In this document: one piece after another, positions 1,087-63,625 of the stretch
Position numbering within the stretch: the stretch's first letter is position 1
Layout of the letters: each line of letters starts with the position of its first letter
Assembly: GCA_043811005.1 (NCBI GenBank)
Contig: JBDRNO010000260.1
Span: 19,579-83,578 of the forward strand
Source of the DNA: Bacteroidota bacterium
GTDB lineage: Bacteria > Bacteroidota > Bacteroidia > NORP154
Direction: 5' to 3'
DNA: 64,000 bases
Program-made: the position numbers and the translations under genes
The notes under the pieces: model-generated
What the model was told of the DNA's origin: nothing
The model's input: only the letters and a program-made list of their open reading frames with translations
Database searches by the model: none

Positions 1087-1168
1087 AATTCTTGAGGATC
1101 AATAGAAAATAACAAGAACAAAGCTGAGTAATTTAATTGAAAAATAATTCCGATACGTTTAAATCAAA

Positions 1169-2879: not shown

Positions 2880-3596
2880 ATGGGACAAAAAACAAATCCA
2901 ATAGGTAACCGTTTGGGAATCATTTATGGCTGGGATTCAAACTGGTATGGAGGGAAAAAATATGCAGATAAATTAATTGAAGACAATAAAATCAGAAGTT
3001 ATTTAAAAGTTCGATTTATTAAAGCAAGTGTTTCAAAAATTATCATTGAAAGAACCTTAAAACTTATTACAGTAACCGTTAATACTGCCCGACCCGGCAT
3101 TATAATTGGAAAGGGTGGTCAGGAGGTTGACAAGCTCAAAGAGGAACTAAAAAAAATCACAAAGAAAGAAGTACAGATAAATATTTATGAAATTAAAAGA
3201 CCGGAGCTTAACGCAAGATTAATTGCAGATAGCATTGCCAAGCAAATAGAAGGTAGGATATCCTTCAGAAGAGCAACTAAAATGGCTATTGCTTCATCTA
3301 TGCGTATTGGTGCAGAAGGGATTAAAGTATCAATTTCCGGCCGTTTAAATGGGGCTGAAATGGCAAGGACAGAGCAATATAAAGAAGGAAGGATTCCTTT
3401 GCACACCTTTAGAGCTGATATTGACTTTGCATTGAGTGAAGCCCAAATGTCTTACGGCAAAATTGGTGTTAAAGTATGGATTTGCAAAGGTGAAGTATAT
3501 GGCAAAAGAGATTTATCTCCTAATATTGGTTTACTGAAATTGAGAGAGGGTAAAACAGCACCTAAGTTTAAACATAGAAAAGAAAAAAGAAATTAA
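2880..3596 (+). CDS. rpsC: 30S ribosomal protein S3 (uS3)
   Basis: [13 protein letters not shown]… KH-domain S3 signature. Confidence 0.93.
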
Positions 3597-4952: not shown

Positions 4953-5273
4953 GTGCCAAAACTACACATTAAAAAAGGGGATAACGTAAAGGTAATTGCC
5001 GGTGAAGATAAAGGAAAACAGGGAAGGATACTTGCAGTTATTTTGCAAAAACATAAAGCCCTTGTTGAGGGACTTAATATGGTATCTAAACATACAAAAC
5101 CCAATGCTACTAATCCGCAAGGGGGTATCATGAAAAAAGAAGCTCCAATTCATATATCAAACTTAATGCTGTTGGATCCATCAACCGGAGAACCAACAAG
5201 AATAGGAAGGAAAAAAGATAAACATGGTAAAATGATGCGTTTTTCCAGAAAATCAAATGAAATAATTAAGTAA
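4953..5273 (+). CDS. rplX: 50S ribosomal protein L24 (uL24)
   Basis: KOW-domain protein. Operon position is consistent. Confidence 0.9.
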
Positions 5274-5821
5274 TGGCTAAAATACCTAATCTGAAAAAGA
5301 AATACAAAGAAAATGTTATCCCTGCTTTATTGCAGCAGTTTAACTATAAAACTACTACACAGGTTCCCAGGCTTGAAAAAGTATGCCTCAACCAAGGGGT
5401 TGGAGATGCCGTTGCAGATAAAAAATTGATCGAATCTGCAATCGATGAAATCACTCTAATTACTGGTCAGAAAGCTGTGCCTACAATTTCCAAAAAGGAT
5501 ATATCTAATTTTAAGCTGAGAAAGGGAATGACAATTGGAGTTAGGGTTACATTGAGAGGGAATAAAATGTATGAATTTGTTGAGAGATTGGTATCAATAG
5601 CCATCCCCAGAACCAGGGATTTCAGTGGAATCAGCACAAAAAGCTTTGACCGAAGAGGAAATTATACATTGGGCATAAAAGAACAAATTATTTTCCCCGA
5701 GATTGATCTGGATAAAGTTAATAACATTACCGGAATGGATATAACTTTCGTTACATCAGCTAAAACTGATAAGGAGGCATTGGCACTACTGAAAGAATTG
5801 GGATTGCCATTTAAAAATTGA
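5273..5821 (+). CDS. rplE: 50S ribosomal protein L5 (uL5)
   Basis: Translation matches uL5. Its start overlaps the rplX stop in a TAATG overlap. Confidence 0.92.
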
Positions 5822-5960
5822 TTATAAATTATTATGAATTCTTATGAGTTAAAAAGAAAAAATTAAGAAAAGATAAACCTCCAATTTTAATCTAAATTTA
5901 TAAAAAAACAAAACCAATCAACAATATTCTTTAAGCAATAGTAAATAATCATTTGAAAGC

Positions 5961-6230: not shown

Positions 6231-6285
6231 AAAATTCAAGAATAACGATTTGCGATTTGCGAAAATCATTAATCTTTAAATCAAT

Positions 6286-6708: not shown

Positions 6709-6784
6709 TTGGTGAATTAAAAATATGTGACGATCAAATAATAATATTTCCATTCAGCAAATTAACCAATCAACAAATAATCAA

Positions 6785-7387: not shown

Positions 7388-7458
7388 TTAAGAACATAGC
7401 TACGCTATTTAATTAAAAAGTAAAAAGTAAAAGTGAGTAAATTCCGATACTATTAATT

Positions 7459-7815
7459 ATGGCATCAATAAGAAAAAAACACAGAAGAGAAAGAATAAAA
7501 TACAGGATTAGAAAAACAATTTCCGGCACTGCCGAAAGACCTCGTTTAACAGTATTTAAAAGCAATAAACAAATTTACGCTCAATTGATTGACGATTTAG
7601 TAGGACATACCCTTATAGCAACATCCTCAAGAGATGACAAATCCGCCCAAAATATCCCAAAAATTGAGCAAGCAAAAATTGCGGGTAAATCCATTGCTGA
7701 AAAAGCAATTAAATCCGGAATCACAAATGTTGTATTTGATAGAAACGGATACTTATATCACGGCAGGGTCAAAACATTAGCTGAAGCAGCCAGAGAAGCA
7801 GGACTTAAATACTAA
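7459..7815 (+). CDS. rplR: 50S ribosomal protein L18 (uL18)
   Basis: Translation matches uL18. Operon position is consistent. Confidence 0.9.
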
Positions 7816-7819
7816 TAAA

Positions 7820-8338
7820 ATGACACATTCTAAAATCAAAAGAATAAAAGCAAGTGAGATAGAACTAAAAGACAAGCTTGTAAGTATAAGAAGAGTTACA
7901 AAGGTTACCAAAGGAGGTAGAACCTTCAGCTTTTCAGCTATCGTGGTTGTGGGAGATGAAAACGGAATAGTTGGTTATGGACTGGGTAAAGCCAAAGAGG
8001 TTACTACTGCTATCGAAAAAGGTATTGATGATGCTAAAAAGAACCTTGTTTCGGTACCAATTATTAAAGGAACCATTCCTCATGAACAAATCGGAAAATT
8101 CAGCGGTGCAGTGGTTTTCTTAAAACCAGCGGCTCATGGTACAGGTGTGATTGCCGGTGGGGCAATGCGTGCTGTATTGGAAAATGTTGGAGTAACCGAT
8201 GTGTTGGCAAAATCAAAGGGCTCATCAAACCCTCATAATGTTGTAAAAGCGACAATGAATGCATTGATGCAAATGAGAGATGCCTTTACCATTGCTCAAC
8301 AAAGAGGAATTAGCATGGATAAAGTGTTTAATGGATAA
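7820..8338 (+). CDS. rpsE: 30S ribosomal protein S5 (uS5)
   Basis: Translation matches uS5. Confidence 0.92.
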
Positions 8339-8355
8339 TAACAAATCAACAACTA

Positions 8356-9224: not shown

Positions 9225-10559
9225 ATGAGGGGACTGATTGAGACATTGCGAAATATTTACAAGATTGAAGATCTGAGGGTTAGGATTATGTTTACATTAG
9301 GGTTCTTGATGGTGTATAGATTAGGGACTTATATTGTATTACCCGGTGTTGACCCTGATGCTTTGGAAGCAGCGACCAGTGGGCCTCAAGGTGGGCTGAC
9401 AGGTCTTTTGGACATGTTTGCCGGAGGTGCATTCTCTCGTGCTTCAATATGCGCACTGGGTATTATGCCTTATATCTCGGCATCTATTGTTATACAACTT
9501 TTAGGTATGGCAATACCATATTTTCAGAAATTACAGAAAGAAGGAGAGAGCGGAAGGAGAAAGATCAACCAGATTACCCGTATGTTAACAATCTTAATTA
9601 CTTTAGGACAAGCACCGGCATATATTTCCTCACAAATTCCAACTAGCGCAATAATTGGCGGCCCCAGTGCTTTTTTTAATATCTCTACTACTATAATCCT
9701 TACAACCGGCACACTGTTTATTATGTGGCTGGGTGAAAAAATTACCGATAAAGGCATTGGAAATGGAATCTCTTTATTGATTATGATCGGAATTATAGCA
9801 AGACTACCTTTTGCCTTTGCCGCTGAGTTTTTCTCCAGATTAGAAGAACAAGGTGGGGGTTTGGTGATGTTCCTTGTCGAAATCGTTTTATTAATGCTGG
9901 TTATCCTTTCAACAATACTCCTGGTACAAGGCAGCAGAAGAGTGCCTGTGCAGTTTGCGAAAAGAATTGTCGGAAACAAGCAATATGGTGGCGTTAGGCA
10001 ATTTATCCCATTAAAAGTTAACGCTGCCGGTGTAATGCCTATTATCTTCGCCCAGGCAATAATGTTTGTCCCTTTAACACTTGCAGGCTTCTCAGACTCG
10101 TCTACACTTCAGGGATTCTTTGCAGCTTTTACTGATTTTACCGGATTTTGGTATAACTTTGTATTCGCTGTGATGATAATTATATTCACTTATTTCTATA
10201 CTGCCATTACTATTAACCCTAATCAAATGGCTGAAGAAATGAAGCGAAACGGAGGTTTTATCCCAGGTGTTAAGCCAGGGAGACAAACAGCAGAGTTTCT
10301 CGATGGCGTTATGTCTAAAATTACTCTACCGGGTTCAATATTCCTTGCTATTGTAGCAATATTACCAGCTTTTGCAATGATAGGAGGAGTGAATAGCCAA
10401 TTTGCACAATTCTATGGAGGAACATCTTTGTTGATAATGGTAGGTGTTGTATTAGATACTTTACAGCAAATAGAAAGCCATTTATTAATGCGTCATTATG
10501 ATGGATTAATGAAATCAGGAAGGATCAAAGGAAGATCCTCCTTGAGTATGGCTACATAA
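9225..10559 (+). CDS. secY: preprotein translocase subunit SecY
   Basis: 444-aa polytopic membrane protein directly after rplO. The translation looks like SecY. Confidence 0.93.
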   Translation: MRGLIETLRNIYKIEDLRVRIMFTLGFLMVYRLGTYIVLPGVDPDALEAATSGPQGGLTGLLDMFAGGAFSRASICALGIMPYISASIVIQLLGMAIPYFQKLQKEGESGRRKINQITRMLTILITLGQAPAYISSQIPTSAIIGGPSAFFNISTTIILTTGTLFIMWLGEKITDKGIGNGISLLIMIGIIARLPFAFAAEFFSRLEEQGGGLVMFLVEIVLLMLVILSTILLVQGSRRVPVQFAKRIVGNKQYGGVRQFIPLKVNAAGVMPIIFAQAIMFVPLTLAGFSDSSTLQGFFAAFTDFTGFWYNFVFAVMIIIFTYFYTAITINPNQMAEEMKRNGGFIPGVKPGRQTAEFLDGVMSKITLPGSIFLAIVAILPAFAMIGGVNSQFAQFYGGTSLLIMVGVVLDTLQQIESHLLMRHYDGLMKSGRIKGRSSLSMAT

Positions 10560-10824
10560 TGAACATAATAGAGTAATTTTATTGAAAAACTTTAAATATC
10601 TCCCGCTAAGCATCCGCCAGCTGGCGGACATAGAACGCAATGATTTATATAAAAAGTAATATTATAGCGAACTTTGCGGGCTATGCGGGATAAAACTTTA
10701 AAATGCGAAGCATTGCTCATTAAGATAATTAATTTTATAGGTATTCGCGAATCTTACGATTTCACGATGGGTTTAAGTGCGGTATGCCCAAAGGTATGAG
10801 TAAATTCCGATACAATCAATTAGG

Positions 10825-11911: not shown

Positions 11912-12135
11912 ATTGATTTATTAAAAAGGAAATCGCATTAAATTTGAGTGAAGAAAAAATATGATAAAGTCACTGGTTTCTGGTTACTGGTGGCTGGTAG
12001 GGATTGCTTCCCTATAATATTATCGAAAAAAACAAGAAGCTAGAAACCAGTAACCAGTAGCTGTTTATTGAAAGCACAAAGAAAAGATTTTAATATAAGT
12101 TCATTTAAAACATTGAAATTCCTATACTAAATAGA

Positions 12136-12252: not shown

Positions 12253-12350
12253 TAATTGATTATTGATTATTGAATATTGAGAATTGAAAAAAAACGAATA
12301 TCATTAATCAATAATCAATAAAAAATTAACAATTAACAATTAACAATTAA

Positions 12351-12731
12351 ATGGCAAGAATAGCTGGAATAGATTTACCAAAAAGCAAAAGAGGTGAAAT
12401 AGGCCTTACTTATATATATGGCATTGGAAGACACTCAGCCCAAGAAATACTTACTAAAGCAGGCGTTGATTGGAATATTAAAGTCCAGGATTGGAGCGAT
12501 GAACAACAAACTAAAATTCGCAAAATTATTGGAGATAAATATAAAGTTGAAGGGGAATTACGATCAGATATCCAGTTGAACATCAAAAGATTAAGAGATA
12601 TTGGGAGTTATAGGGGTATCAGACATCGTTTAGGCATGCCATTGAGAGGACAGAGCACAAAAAACAATGCCAGAACCCGCAAAGGAAAGAGAAAGACTGT
12701 TGCCGGGAAGAAGAAAGTACTTAAAGGTTAA
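12351..12731 (+). CDS. rpsM: 30S ribosomal protein S13 (uS13)
   Basis: [10 protein letters not shown]… is the uS13 start. Confidence 0.93.
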
Positions 12732-13131: not shown

Positions 13132-13265
13132 TAACATAACTTTGCAAATGAACAAAAAAAGATAAATTCTAAAATGTTTTTTTAAATATTGAAATACAAA
13201 GTATTCACGAACACCTTTAAAAACAAACAATAGAGTGAGTAAATTCCAATACAATAAATTTTATT

Positions 13266-13871: not shown

Positions 13872-13876
13872 GTACA

Positions 13877-13884
13877 TAGCTTTG
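13877..13884 (+). promoter_or_regulatory. Possible −7 promoter element TAgcTTTG ahead of rpoA
   Basis: Exact match to the Bacteroidota −7 consensus TAnnTTTG. It is the last bases of, and just after, the rpsD coding region. Confidence 0.3.
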
Positions 13885-13959
13885 CAAATTAATTAATGTT
13901 TTTAAAATTCTGATACAATAAAAACACAAGAATCGTAAATCTTAAATCGTAAATCAAAA

Positions 13960-14952: not shown

Positions 14953-15103
14953 TTCACATAAGATACTATTTTTTTCGATGAGATAACTTTAAAAAAAAGC
15001 TCCTGATAAATCAAGATGAAATCTATCTGTCAGCTTGCAGATGAGAAAATCCAAACTTCAAATTAAATATTTGAAATCTTTGAAATTCGTGATACTATAA
15101 AAT

Positions 15104-23562: not shown

Positions 23563-23690
23563 CGTTTTTTCAATATGTTTTATACAAAAATATCATATTT
23601 TTATAAACTTTACTATTAAAATATTGTACCGGAATTTCTAAAAAGGCAATATTTTGCCAAAATTGGTTAAGACTTGCCTTTTAAGGTCTA

Positions 23691-34564: not shown

Positions 34565-35891
34565 TTATTTTACATGCAGCATTTTTTTCTTTAAAACCAT
34601 TCCATCACTTTTCAACACATAATAATACATTCCACTTCCTATGTTATATTCTTCGGGATCAAACCTTTCAATATACTTTCCATAATCATACCTCTGATCA
34701 TCTATCATTGTTCTTATTTCCCTTCCCATGAAGTCATAAACTTTAAGACTTATTATTGAACTTTTGTGTAATTTGAATGAGATAAAAGTCTCGTTGGTAA
34801 AAGGATTCGGGCGATTTTGATTTAGCAAGACATTAGCTGCAAATAGCTCTTCCTCAACACCGGAAATCAAATCCGGGTCAACAATAGCAGTCCAAATGCT
34901 CAGATCAGAGTCATCTAATCTTGTCCATATCGGTCTAATAACACTATCATGTGCAGTTATATTGGTATAATCTCCAAAAAACACTGATTGATCTGGCAGG
35001 AAAGGGGATTCACTAATTTTAAAATTTGTAAAGGTATATCCGCCATCGGTTGAAACAACCATATAAACATCCGTTTGATTGTTGTTATAATTTCTGCGGT
35101 CATAAAAAACAAAATATAAATATCCGTTTGTTTGATCAATTGTCATCCAGGTGAAGAACTGTTGTTTCCCGGGAGGGTCATTATTGACACGGATCGGGGC
35201 ACACCATGTATTTCCTCCGTCTGTTGATTTTGTCAGCCACACATCAGTGTCATCGGAACCGTTTCGCTGATCGGTCCAATTAATGTAAATAGATCCGCTA
35301 TATGGTCCGTTGCTAAGATCACAAACAGTTATAGGAAGACCATGTTTGCCCACCGTCAACCGATTTGGAAAATAAGATGATGGTGCTGTCATTGACGTTT
35401 GTACTGCCATAATCATCAAATTGTGTCCATGTTACATAAATGTGATTGGTATTTCTATCAACTACCACCCACTCTTTATCCTGCGCTTTGGTTCCATTTA
35501 AACCCATGTAAGTTCCGTCTGTCCATGTTGTTCCGTTATCTGATGATTTCTGACAAACAATCCTGTCTATCCAGTTTCCTGAATCAGGGTTGGAAAGATG
35601 GAAATAATAAAAATGACCAGCAGTGTCAACAAAAACAGCGGGATCGCCCCACACACCGTAAGAAGAGGATTGCACATGCTCAGTCCAGGTATATCCCCCG
35701 TCAGAAGAAACATAGTAATTATCTAAATTGGCAGCAGCTACAATTTTATCGGTATTATTGGGATCCAAGACAATGGTTGTCTCATTGGGATTATTCAAAT
35801 TACTTATAAGCACATTTGTATGTTGCGCGAAGAGTTGATTAAAAAGGAATAAGACGATTATAAAGCAAAATTTTTCCATACTTCTAATCAT
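34565..35891 (-). pseudogene. BNR-repeat (sialidase-like) T9SS cargo protein disrupted by a frameshift
   Basis: The upstream ORF (190 aa) has a signal peptide and SxDxGxTW BNR repeats. The overlapping downstream ORF (284 aa, +1 frame) continues BNR repeats and ends in a T9SS C-terminal domain (…YYYVLKSDGMVLKKKMLHVK). The frames switch near 35320-35345, with no homopolymer at the junction. Confidence 0.75.
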
Positions 35892-36125
35892 TAAATTGAT
35901 AGTATGAGAATTTTAATGTTTCGCCACGAATTTTAAAAAAAAATATATTAGTGTAAATTCGTGAATAGAATCTTATATTATTTTCATTACCCCACAACAA
36001 AGATAATAAAAAGATGGTTCACCCCGTGAAGCATTAATCATACAAAAAACAATAAGGAATATTGGCATCTTTATTGTACATCTAACTGTTAATTATTCAC
36101 ACTAGAGGCATTCAAATTAATAGTT

Positions 36126-44751: not shown

Positions 44752-45051
44752 ATGACAAAAGCAGAAATTATTTCAGAAATAACCGAAAAAACCGGAATTG
44801 AAAAGGTTACCGTTAAAGTAGCTATTGAAGCATTTATGAATGAAATTAAAACTTCAATGATAAACGGGGAAAATGCCTATTTGAGAGGATTTGGAAGTTT
44901 TATAGTAAAAAAAAGGGCTGAAAAAACAGGTAGAAACATATCCAAGAATACAACAATTATTATTCCTGCACATTATGTGCCTGCTTTTAAACCTGCCAAA
45001 CATTTCGTTGAAAAATTAAGGAATAACACAGCTCTCTATATAGAGGAATAA
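44752..45051 (+). CDS. hup: HU-family DNA-binding protein
   Basis: 99-aa translation matches HU/IHF fold (…RGFGSF….R.ARTGRN…). Confidence 0.88.
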   Translation: MTKAEIISEITEKTGIEKVTVKVAIEAFMNEIKTSMINGENAYLRGFGSFIVKKRAEKTGRNISKNTTIIIPAHYVPAFKPAKHFVEKLRNNTALYIEE

Positions 45052-45133
45052 TACAGTAACGGAGAAGATACGTTCTCAAAGCTCAGATTAAAATTAACAT
45101 AATTAATTAAAATATATTTATCAAACATTTATT

Positions 45134-45226
45134 ATGCCAAGCGGTAAAAAGAGAAAGAGACATAAAATGGCTACCCACAAGCGTAAAAAACGCTTAAGAA
45201 AGAATAGACATAAGAAAAAACAGTAG
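45134..45226 (+). CDS. small highly basic protein, bS22-like (AURKAIP1/COX24-type ribosomal protein)
   Basis: Manual translation gives MPSGKKRKRHKMATHKRKKRLRKNRHKKKQ (30 aa). It resembles the KRxRMxKKKHRKLL core of bS22 known from mycobacterial and Flavobacterium ribosomes. Confidence 0.5.
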   Translation: MPSGKKRKRHKMATHKRKKRLRKNRHKKKQ

Positions 45227-49118: not shown

Positions 49119-50229
49119 ATGATCACCCCCGACCAGCTCAACGACCTAAAGGAACGCCTGGCTGCGCTAAGGAGGCATCTTTGACATTGCCGTCAAGCTA
49201 AAACAGATTGCCGAAGAAGAACAGCAAAGCCAGGCAGTAGATTTCTGGAATGATCCTAAGAAAGCCGAACTGTTCCTCAAACAGAGAAGCAATAAAAAAA
49301 TTTGGACATCTGCATTTAATAAAACCAATAGCAGTCTGGAGGATCTTCTTGTGCTTTACGATTTCTTCAAAACGGGTGAGGCTTCCGAACAGGAAATGGT
49401 TGAACAATACAATATATCCCTGAAACTTATTGAAGATCTGGAATTCAAGAACATGCTTTCAAGTGAGGAAGACCGTCTCAATGCTATACTGGAGATAAAC
49501 TCCGGTGCAGGCGGCACCGAGAGTCAGGACTGGGCAGAAATATTGATGCGTATGTATATCATGTGGGGTGAGAAGAACAATTTTGTTGTGAAACAAGTGA
49601 ATCATCAATCCGGTGAAGGGGCGGGAATAAAATCAGCTACATTAGAAATTGAAGGGGATTTTGCTTATGGATACCTGAAAAGTGAGAATGGTGTCCACCG
49701 GTTAGTGCGCATCTCCCCTTTTGATGCCAATAAAAAACGCCACACCTCCTTTGCATCGGTGTTTGCTTTCCCGCTTATTGATGATTCAATTGAAATAGAA
49801 ATTAACCCCTCTGATATTACATGGGACACTTTCAGATCCGGCGGTGCAGGCGGGCAATCTGTTAATAAATTGGAAACTGCTGTACGTCTAAAGCACGAAC
49901 CATCAGGGATTATCATTGAAAACTCGGAAACAAGATCACAGCTTGATAATAAGAATAGGGCAATGCACCTTCTCAAATCACGATTATATGAGCTTGAACT
50001 GAGAAAACGCCAACAGGAGAAGAAAAAGATTGAAAGCAGCAAGAAAAAGATAGAGTGGGGGTCACAGATCCGGAATTATGTGATACACCCCTATAAAATG
50101 GTGAAAGACCTGCGGACAGGAGTGGAAACATCAAACGTGCAGGCAGTTTTAGATGGAGATATTGATAGATTTATCAAGGCATATCTGATGGAATTCGGGC
50201 ATAATCGAATTAATCCCGATAATTCCTAG
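49119..50229 (+). CDS. prfB: peptide chain release factor 2, expressed via programmed +1 ribosomal frameshift (join 49119..49181, 49183..50229)
   Basis: ORF1 [21 protein letters not shown]-stop contains the canonical site AGGAGG-CAT-CTT-TGA-C (internal SD plus CUU UGA C). The +1 frame continues [12 protein letters not shown]… into the 292-aa ORF carrying the SPF and GGQ motifs (…[12 protein letters not shown]…). Confidence 0.92.
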
Positions 50230-63161: not shown

Positions 63162-63216
63162 AGTAAAACCGATTAACAATTATAATTCACTAATTTTACC
63201 AATTCACCAAATAATC

Positions 63217-63588: not shown

Positions 63589-63625
63589 AGGACATAGCTT
63601 TACAAATTTGTTAAAAAACTGCTAT

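Follow-up and report, generated by a model that had tools for sequence, protein, structure and literature searches.

The question raised by this locus is why one short sequence should recur just ahead of the start codons of several different genes in a bacterial ribosomal operon. We analysed a stretch of 64,000 nucleotides (hereafter the window) of contig JBDRNO010000260.1 from a Bacteroidota bacterium, assembly GCA_043811005.1, which carries the S10-spc-alpha ribosomal cluster. In the original prediction, a 12-nt motif at the Shine-Dalgarno (SD) position of seven genes in this cluster had been read as an operon-internal cis element, possibly a translational enhancer or operator, a processing site, or an alternative promoter element. 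We find that the motif is the core of a longer block, and that this block probably forms the 3'-terminal module of an intergenic repeat that is modular, multi-copy and specific to a lineage of uncultured Bacteroidota.

All seven sites were present with their expected sequences on the + strand, the rplB site starting at position 1145, and the distances to the ATG given for them held (Table 1). Counted from the last C of the motif, six sites lie 8-13 nt from the ATG; at rpoA the distance is 43 nt, and a direct repeat of 7-nt period lies between the core variant and the ATG. By Pfam, the downstream genes encode L2, L18, Map, L36, S4, RpoA and L17, while 19 other genes in the ribosomal operon have no motif. 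The flanking signals described earlier were also found, namely GTGAGT or TGAGT directly 5' of three motif sites and a -7 box, TAGCTTTG, at 13877-13884 ahead of the rpoA motif. The map and rpsD leaders do share GTATTCRCGAA (10741-10751 and 13201-13211), but its predicted position 40-60 nt upstream is only a rough one, the actual distances being 50 and 29 nt 5' of the motif.

The motif is a genuine, non-random and strand-specific intergenic element that lies just 5' of start codons in the operon. With at most one mismatch it matched seven times in the window, whereas 200 first-order Markov simulations gave 0.48 matches on average and never more than 4; six of these seven matches fall within spacers of the ribosomal cluster, all on the + strand and between 1145 and 13916. 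With at most two mismatches to AAATTCCGATAC there were 22 matches vs 9.2 +/- 2.9 in shuffles. The motif had been thought absent upstream of non-ribosomal genes, and this did not hold, as weaker copies precede a BNR/T9SS-tail gene (AAATTCTCATAC) and an M1-peptidase gene (AAATTCCGGTAC), both running in the sense of their gene; the copy before the M1 peptidase may be decayed or a chance match. Because of these two copies, the bias towards ribosomal spacers is weak when counted per spacer (7 of 27 ribosomal spacers vs 2 of 30 others, Fisher p=0.07).

Pairwise local alignment of all spacers in the window extended the motif on both sides. What results is a block of ~25 nt, GTGAGTAAATTCCGATACWATNAATT, with the consensus (GT)GAGTAAATTCCGATACWATNAATT, in which the 12-mer forms the invariant core, AAATTC-N2-ATAC. 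In the nine window copies AAATTC and ATAC are unchanged, and nearly all changes fall in the two central bases (CpG). The rplR, map and rpsD spacers have 25 nearly identical bases in common, TGAGTAAATTCCGATACWATNAATT, and the alignment of the rplR with the rpsD spacer spans 46 nt, the full block abutting the rplR ATG although its core ends 8 nt away. Similarity also extends to the other end of the spacers, where alike 5' modules were found in the rplB/rplR pair and in the rpsD/rpoA pair. The spacers after rplF and before rplB start with AAGAACATAGCT..., and those directly after the rpsK and rpsD stop codons with ACATARCTTTGCAAAT. The rplF-rplR spacer is wholly filled by a degenerate 5' module, a GTAAAAA-type repeat and the terminal block. 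Each motif-bearing spacer is essentially one cassette, which opens at the stop codon with a 5' module, continues as an A/T-rich stretch, often with 7-nt tandem repeats, and closes with the terminal block before the ATG.

The same block was recovered elsewhere as the end of a larger unit. A single scan of a metagenome collection with GAGTAAATTCCRATACWAT returned 54 loci, about 30 of which (GC 0.34-0.41, from a handful of samples) were homologous in context, with the same upstream modules in the same order and the block closing a modular repeat at its 3' end. The sequence of a typical copy is ...AATGAAATTAGCCATTATCAAGCC-AACATTGAACTTAGCC-(GC hairpin)-GCGATCTCATGA-(variable element)-GAGTAAATTCCGATACWATAAATTA, the variable element being either ACGAAGT or a hairpin, namely a second one (TCCGCC..GGCGGA) or a long one (CCCTGTGAAAT...ATTTCACAGGG); some copies begin, immediately behind a stop codon, with AAGAACATAGCTTCGCAAATT. 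Modules are swapped or dropped between copies, with their order, M5/M4-M3-hairpin-M2-hairpin-block, conserved. The 5' module AAGAACATAGCTTYGCAAATT is optional and usually starts at the stop codon of the preceding gene. The first hairpin varies in sequence with its pairing kept (compensatory changes in four of eight pairs). The block itself is not palindromic and is predicted to be unpaired in the family alignment.

The window copies belong to this family, since positions 7431-7459 match one metagenomic locus (L120) at 29 of 29 bases and positions 7389-7432 are 93% identical to another (L091) over 44 nt. About 36 copies were counted in 170 kb of metagenomic loci and nine in the window; seven further, unselected copies lay in the same 170 kb vs ~1.4 expected. 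True contig ends are found within ~300 nt of at least 16 copies, the mark of a repeat that breaks assemblies. Their neighbours are unrelated to one another and include tgt, a thiL-like gene, yggS, an amino-acid permease, M14 peptidases, GH20, a rhamnosidase, DUF4290 and LTXXQ. A block that precedes such genes at up to 29/29 identity is neither operon-internal nor ribosome-specific, as had been proposed; multi-copy, non-coding, set among unrelated genes and modular with palindromic units, it has the properties of a dispersed small intergenic repeat. In these loci the block lies 8-570 nt from the next start (median near 65 nt) and points towards a gene start in 24 copies vs towards a 3' end in five. 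Where orientation is informative, in co-directional spacers and with the window counted, the ratio is 10:0 in the sense direction (p=0.002). Two orthologous yggS loci (L085 and L133) differ in the upstream modules but have retained the block together with the 47 nt between it and the ATG. Proteins of the carrier contigs gave only four weak matches to the window organism (25-41% identity, possibly paralogues). A literature search by sequence found no paper printing the motif in the library that was searchable.

Comparison with related genomes placed the element in lineage-specific spacer expansions. SecY-based retrieval from 185,579 GTDB species yielded 80 loci (67-76% identity, all Bacteroidia), and in these the motif occurred at background frequency only, 0.8 matches per 100 kb as counted over 1.47 Mb of related genomes. 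When Map was searched against 5.8 billion proteins, identity above 77% was found only for the source organism's own Map; the 13 loci of the nearest homologues (73-77%) keep the gene order, have compact spacers and carry no motif. The orthologous positions in all 80 and 13 clusters are thus free of the motif, and their spacers are short; by the criterion set with the original prediction the motif is not conserved there, with the proviso that none of these relatives is truly close. The secY-map spacer measures 265 nt in the window vs 11-34 nt in the nearest Map-homologue contigs, and the rplF-rplR spacer 71 nt vs 10-25 nt. In sum, the 26 spacers from rplW to rplQ come to 1894 nt in the window vs 609, 823 and 331 nt in three relatives, and the motif-bearing spacers measure 71-265 nt vs 8-58 nt in L081; the orthologous spacers of relatives are too diverged for alignment. 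A search for recurrent k-mers in the relatives' clusters revealed local tandem repeats only and nothing analogous to the motif at the corresponding places. One GTDB relative (L054) has a short tandem repeat, CTTTAAA/CTTTTAAA, directly 5' of the rplF, rpmD and rpmJ starts (7577-7625, 9243-9265 and 12472-12500), so that the window organism is not alone in having lineage-specific simple repeats in its ribosomal spacers.

Table 1. Copies of the block and of associated modules in the window, with the element-end sequence expected for the family.
Feature	Sequence	Position	Strand	Remark
Repeat core	TAATTCCGATAC	1145..1156	+	12 nt 5' of rplB ATG (1169)
Full terminal block	GTGAGTAAATTCCGATACTATTAATT	7433..7458	+	Core 7439-7450, 8 nt 5' of rplR ATG (7459); block 0 nt from ATG
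Terminal block	TGAGTAAATTCCGATACAATCAATT	10797..10821	+	Core 10802-10813, 11 nt 5' of map ATG (10825)
Core variant	AAATTCCTATAC	12116..12127	+	8 nt 5' of rpmJ ATG (12136)
Terminal block	GTGAGTAAATTCCAATACAATAAATT	13235..13260	+	Core 13241-13252, 13 nt 5' of rpsD ATG (13266)
Core variant	AAATTCTGATAC	13905..13916	+	43 nt 5' of rpoA ATG (13960)
Core variant, one extra base	AAATTCGTGATAC	15083..15095	+	8 nt 5' of rplQ ATG (15104)
Core variant	AAATTCTCATAC	35902..35913	-	10 nt 5' of ATG (35891) of non-ribosomal BNR/T9SS-tail gene
Decayed copy or chance match (may be either)	AAATTCCGGTAC	23626..23637	-	63 nt 5' of M1-peptidase ATG (23562), upstream of that gene's -7 box
Degenerate 5' module	AAGAACAAAGCTGAGTAATTTAATTGAAAAA	1114..1144	+	rplW-rplB spacer
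Degenerate 5' module, then GTAAAAA-type direct repeat	AAGAACATAGCTACGCTATTTAATTAAAAA	7390..7432	+	From alignment
5' module	AACATAACTTTGCAAATG	13133..13150	+	Abuts rpsK stop codon; holds Bacteroidota -7 box TAACTTTG
5' module	ACATAGCTTTGCAAATTA	13873..13890	+	Abuts rpsD stop codon; holds -7 box TAGCTTTG
Remainder of 265-nt secY-map spacer		10560..10796	+	Decayed pieces of the repeat family
Palindrome	CCGCCAGCTGGCGG	10614-10627		secY-map spacer
Decayed repeat piece	GCGAAGCATT	10705-10714		secY-map spacer
Inverted, gapped core copy	GTATTCGCGAATCTTAC	10741-10757		secY-map spacer
Box	GTATTCACGAA	13201..13211	+	rpsD spacer; partial inverted copy of core; also at 35958-35967, minus strand
Expected element-end sequence (as for flanks of any cognate transposase)	GAGTAAATTCCGATAC

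The hairpin modules of the family also have a counterpart in the window. The perfect 14-nt palindrome CCGCCAGCTGGCGG occurs there five times (10614, 21352, 31557, 32096 and 61061) against ~0 expected, and it serves as a hairpin module beside the block in L118 and L131. Two of the five copies lie in frame within GC-rich patches of open reading frames (ORFs), in the M1 peptidase (..APASWRSAP..) and in a 1239-aa protein (..IRQLADGS..), which suggests in-frame insertions of a small palindromic element. Hairpins of the GACTGnn type are found at ~31.9-32.1 kb.

How the block came to occupy the SD position can be explained if the element is a repeat of this kind. Its longer copies consist, in order, of the optional 5' module, one or more GC-rich hairpin modules and the terminal block, and short versions (5' module, A/T-rich spacer, terminal block) would have been inserted or copied into at least seven S10-spc-alpha intercistronic gaps, roughly trebling total spacer length. 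As the original gaps would have been only ~10-50 nt and the insert has the block at its 3' edge, the block would end 8-13 nt from the ATG and so mimic an SD site; the apparent SD position would then be largely a by-product of sitting at that edge. The block may be conserved because the element needs it, its end being recognised during copying, or because the copies are recent. Antisense orientation would be selected against inside transcription units, with only the sense direction tolerated in operons, and the operon block would merely be transcribed as the unstructured A/U-rich end of a leader, with no ribosome-specific regulatory role.

Several observations weigh against the repeat interpretation. 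Neither a transposase nor a terminal inverted repeat was identified at the copies checked, and we therefore infer mobility from copy number and mosaicism. A Pfam scan of ~16 ORFs flanking the copies checked found housekeeping genes and no transposase directly adjacent, and one IS4-type DDE gene lies 1.4 kb from a copy in L090 without a visible link. Within 400 nt upstream of the block, an inverted copy was found only in the map spacer, with three insertions; elsewhere there were weak matches. Outside the ribosomal cluster, 48 kb of the window holds only the two weak copies. Changes are concentrated in the centre of the core in the nine window copies and in two metagenomic subfamilies, and six of the seven operon copies fall within a narrow range of distances to the ATG. 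Sense-only orientation and the fixed AAATTC and ATAC halves look like a constrained bipartite recognition site, as would be the case for a host-level cis element; together with the 8-13 nt spacing at six cistrons, they leave room for a host-level function. Two other origins were rejected: a classical MITE (miniature inverted-repeat transposable element) with inverted ends, since a terminal inverted repeat is present only at the map copy, and a phage origin, as three matches in viral contigs were chance hits within coding DNA. The block cannot be claimed for the MITE, the repetitive extragenic palindrome (REP) or the IS200/IS605-derived class.

Four explanations that give the block a function of its own in gene expression were weighed against its behaviour as a repeat. 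The position before six ATGs resembles SD spacing, and pairing is conceivable between UUCCG and the GGAA loop region of helix 45 ('tail' duplex -12.6 kcal/mol). An alternative SD-like site that pairs with 16S rRNA is nonetheless extremely improbable. The block was evaluated by RNAduplex against the complete 16S of a related Bacteroidales (L037) rather than the host's own, with 300 shuffled motifs as the control, and its best duplex was no better than those of the shuffles (shuffles at least as good, 0.16-0.58). The helix-45 site is a closed internal hairpin, the central bases that would have to pair are the variable ones, and the spacing, which should be fixed for an SD site, varies both in the operon and in the metagenomic loci. 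The prfB gene of the window (49120-50229), which encodes release factor 2, has a +1 frameshift site, AGGAGGCATCTTTGAC, at 49170-49185 with a stimulatory AGGAGG (AGGAGG..CTTTGAC); its initial frame ends in a stop and the protein goes on in the +1 frame. Such a site implies a canonical anti-SD, and its presence argues for an ordinary one in the window organism. This SD-like stimulator has been retained though the organism's genes are otherwise without SD sequences. A promoter cassette, in which a mobile promoter and leader, with a -7 box from the 5' module and the block as its start-proximal part, splits operon transcription, seems quite improbable as well. The spacers of rpsD and rpoA do open with TAACTTTG and TAGCTTTG, which lie 20-96 nt ahead of the block; a box of this kind is also found in the promoters of enolase and rplO, and copies of the block are oriented towards gene starts. 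However, the 5' module in relatives reads TAGCTTCG rather than the consensus, no -33 element accompanies it, TTTG has been lost from the modules of the rplB, rplR and map spacers, and long copies are devoid of any -7 box. The block itself matches neither of the two promoter types compared. The Bacteroidota -7 box TAnnTTTG, otherwise readily found before genes in the window, is not in the 12-mer or the block. TACAAT/TACTAT follows the core, but a -35-like partner 16-18 nt upstream is present only at the rplQ site (one of seven), and sigma-70 -10/-35 pairs are not enriched in the region (50 vs 57.5 +/- 7.4 in shuffles). Sigma-28-like (CCGATA) and extracytoplasmic-function-like (GAAC-N15-CGA) readings, made by eye, were dropped, the CG being variable and the -35-like partner missing in the window copies; to our knowledge, flagellar sigma factors are not expected in this phylum.

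The conservation pattern bears on the two remaining explanations. If AAATTC-N2-ATAC were the bipartite site of a DNA- or RNA-binding regulator, it would act as an operator co-regulating many genes, ribosomal sub-operons included. The variable centre between conserved halves, the consistent orientation relative to genes and the related near-palindromic boxes ATTCGCGAAT and ATTCACGAAT in three leaders are in line with this, but the downstream genes are functionally incoherent, no relative has the site conserved at the orthologous positions, and no regulator gene is linked to the block. Moreover, the centre is a CpG with mostly transition changes, and a mutational hotspot would give the same pattern; we regard an operator as very doubtful. 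The block could instead act at the RNA level, as a portable module for leaders or translation initiation to which S1, a protein of the cold-shock/RRM type or some other factor associated with the ribosome binds. It would give SD-independent ribosomes entry to a cistron whose translational coupling was lost on spacer expansion, the repeat spreading the block and the host keeping it where useful. This explanation, although unlikely, accounts for the 10:0 sense orientation, the invariant halves and the distance of 8-13 nt at six of seven operon genes, with 10 nt at the BNR gene; several metagenomic copies also lie 8-24 nt from a start with no -7 box between. The block is predicted to be unpaired in every leader and in the family alignment. 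Yet the leader folds are no less structured than shuffles, and not specially open either: nine leaders, when folded, showed no common structure, with z-scores from -1.7 to +0.6, about 0 overall, and pairing of GTATTCRCGAA with the block or with GTGAGT was found in only two or three. The long and variable distances to the next start in relatives, the five copies that face a gene 3' end, the three with a canonical -7 box downstream of them, which probably places them outside the mRNA, and the 19 genes of the same operon that manage without the block also tell against it. Rfam gave no match in the window or in 12 element-bearing loci, save two unrelated group II intron hits (L084), and neither sense-strand identity to the rRNA operon nor rRNA mimicry was detected.

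The repeat and leader explanations can be combined. A selfish repeat might distribute a ~25-nt single-stranded RNA signal (AAAUUC-N2-AUAC) that serves as a mobile SD-independent initiation or leader module read by a ribosome-associated factor; this is speculative and rather unlikely to be correct. If true, it would mean that Bacteroidota cistrons could be uncoupled from the cistrons upstream of them, and there would be a reason for an essential ribosomal operon to tolerate, or indeed recruit, seven copies. The choice of start sites in Bacteroidota without SD pairing is still an open problem, and a start-proximal block would matter more if initiation were affected. A portable sequence that is present or absent before paralogous or orthologous cistrons would also provide a natural experiment. 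As a repeat, the element would be a small family invading the most conserved operon of a bacterial genome, and such repeats break metagenome assemblies and inflate spacers. The case also carries a caution, that a motif recurring within one window should not be taken as a dedicated regulatory signal.

Additional observations were made on the spacers and on the repeat family. Another copy of the 5' module, GACATAGCTTTACAAATT, lies at 63591-63608, right after a TauE-family gene and ~25 nt 5' of what is probably the TTG start of an M20-type amidohydrolase, and is not followed by a terminal block. Another leader module that recurs, CCAATCAMCAAATAA, is present just 5' of rplW, rplF, rpmD (as ACAAATCAACAAC), rpsN and the TauE-family gene, which is non-ribosomal (769-783, 6766-6780, 8341-8353, ~5900-5915 and 63199-63214). 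Direct repeats of 7-nt period occur in spacers at 12256-12276, 12328-12348, 6247-6260, ~7418-7438 and ~13926-13950, some of them reaching the start codon. Their units are TTGATTA x3 and AACAATT x3 (rpsM), GATTTGC x2 (rpsH), the GTAAAAA type (rplR) and AAATCNT x4 (rpoA), and comparable 7-mer arrays (GGCTAAG, AATTTTT, CAGTCnn) were seen in metagenomic loci. The infA-rpmJ spacer, of 224 nt in the window and ~29 nt in L081, contains a long imperfect hairpin of 7-nt units at 11973-12061 (CTGGTTT CTGGTTA CTGGTGG CTGGTAG ... CTAGAAACCAGTAACCAGTAG). In several metagenomic contigs the long form of the repeat begins right after a small gene (..ESNYWLKIF.., ..NHMIQNPEKYK and stop) found at L129 ~5150-5418 (minus), L131 ~8100-8276 (minus) and L090 ~3330-3400. 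Judged by its sequence, the C-terminus of its product looks like that of the four-helix-bundle / 23S rRNA intervening-sequence proteins, a family that is often multi-copy in its own right.

Three features of the window concern annotation. The rplB gene (1169-1992) is in two frames, as the ORF at 1169-1360 stops and the L2 domains resume at ~1345 in another frame; one extra A in the A-run at 1343-1348 (CATAAAAAAGG) restores the L2 reading, and the split probably reflects a sequencing or assembly error at the homopolymer and not a programmed shift. The BNR/T9SS-tail gene (34565-35891, minus strand) is likewise split into overlapping ORFs (35319-35891 and 34565-35419), likely by a second frameshift error or because it is a pseudogene. 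The otherwise empty-looking region at 44752-45225 holds two small unlisted genes, one for an HU-like protein (MTKAEIISEITEKTG...) and the other for a 29-residue, highly basic peptide, MPSGKKRKRHKMATHKRKKRLRKNRHKKK, resembling ribosomal protein bS22.

The autoregulatory leaders of ribosomal proteins (the S4, S8 and L4 operators) resemble the present case in location, as they too lie in leaders of ribosomal-protein cistrons including rpsD. They differ in that the block has no Rfam match, conserved fold or rRNA mimicry, and one sequence precedes seven different cistrons as well as non-ribosomal genes. In architecture and function the closest analogues are the Correia-type MITEs, the mosaics of bacterial interspersed mosaic elements (BIMEs) and REPs, and the pneumococcal BOX elements. 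Correia/NEMIS elements of Neisseria and other MITEs are, like the present repeat, small, non-autonomous and situated beside genes, and Correia/NEMIS-type elements can donate promoters, processing sites or leaders. Classical MITEs, however, have terminal inverted repeats and target-site duplications, and here an inverted partner accompanies a single window copy. The REP/BIME elements of enterobacteria and pseudomonads share the GC-rich palindromic units in A/T-richer spacers, the mosaics with non-palindromic linkers and the location in intercistronic gaps of operons, where they are tolerated within transcripts. The block, in contrast, is non-palindromic, has no GTAG/CGTC tag and points at gene 5' ends, whereas REPs lie mostly at 3' ends. 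BOX elements of Streptococcus pneumoniae are modular boxA-boxB(n)-boxC intergenic repeats. They are likewise short, non-coding and multi-copy, combine constant 5' and 3' modules with a variable number of structured middle modules, and are often near gene starts and co-transcribed. There is no sequence similarity between the two, the end modules here are not clearly complementary, the 3' module here also occurs alone or with the 5' module only, and the host belongs to the SD-independent Bacteroidota; BOX elements were reportedly described by Martin et al. in 1992 and Croucher et al. in 2011.

For the phenomenon of a motif before start codons, the closest analogue is, by its position and distribution, the TAACTGA heptamer. 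These direct repeats are intergenic in Beggiatoaceae, Cyanobacteria and a few Bacteroidetes; their function is unknown, and a translational regulator has been proposed (PMC4679880). As with the block, they are forward-oriented and lie within a few nt of start codons, replacing the SD, before functionally unrelated genes, and the spacers of close relatives are shorter and without the motif (PMC4679880). The TAACTGA repeat is a tandem 7-nt unit, unlike the single ~25-nt block that ends a larger repeat here, but the window spacers of rpsM, rpsH, rplR and rpoA also hold 7-nt tandem repeats.

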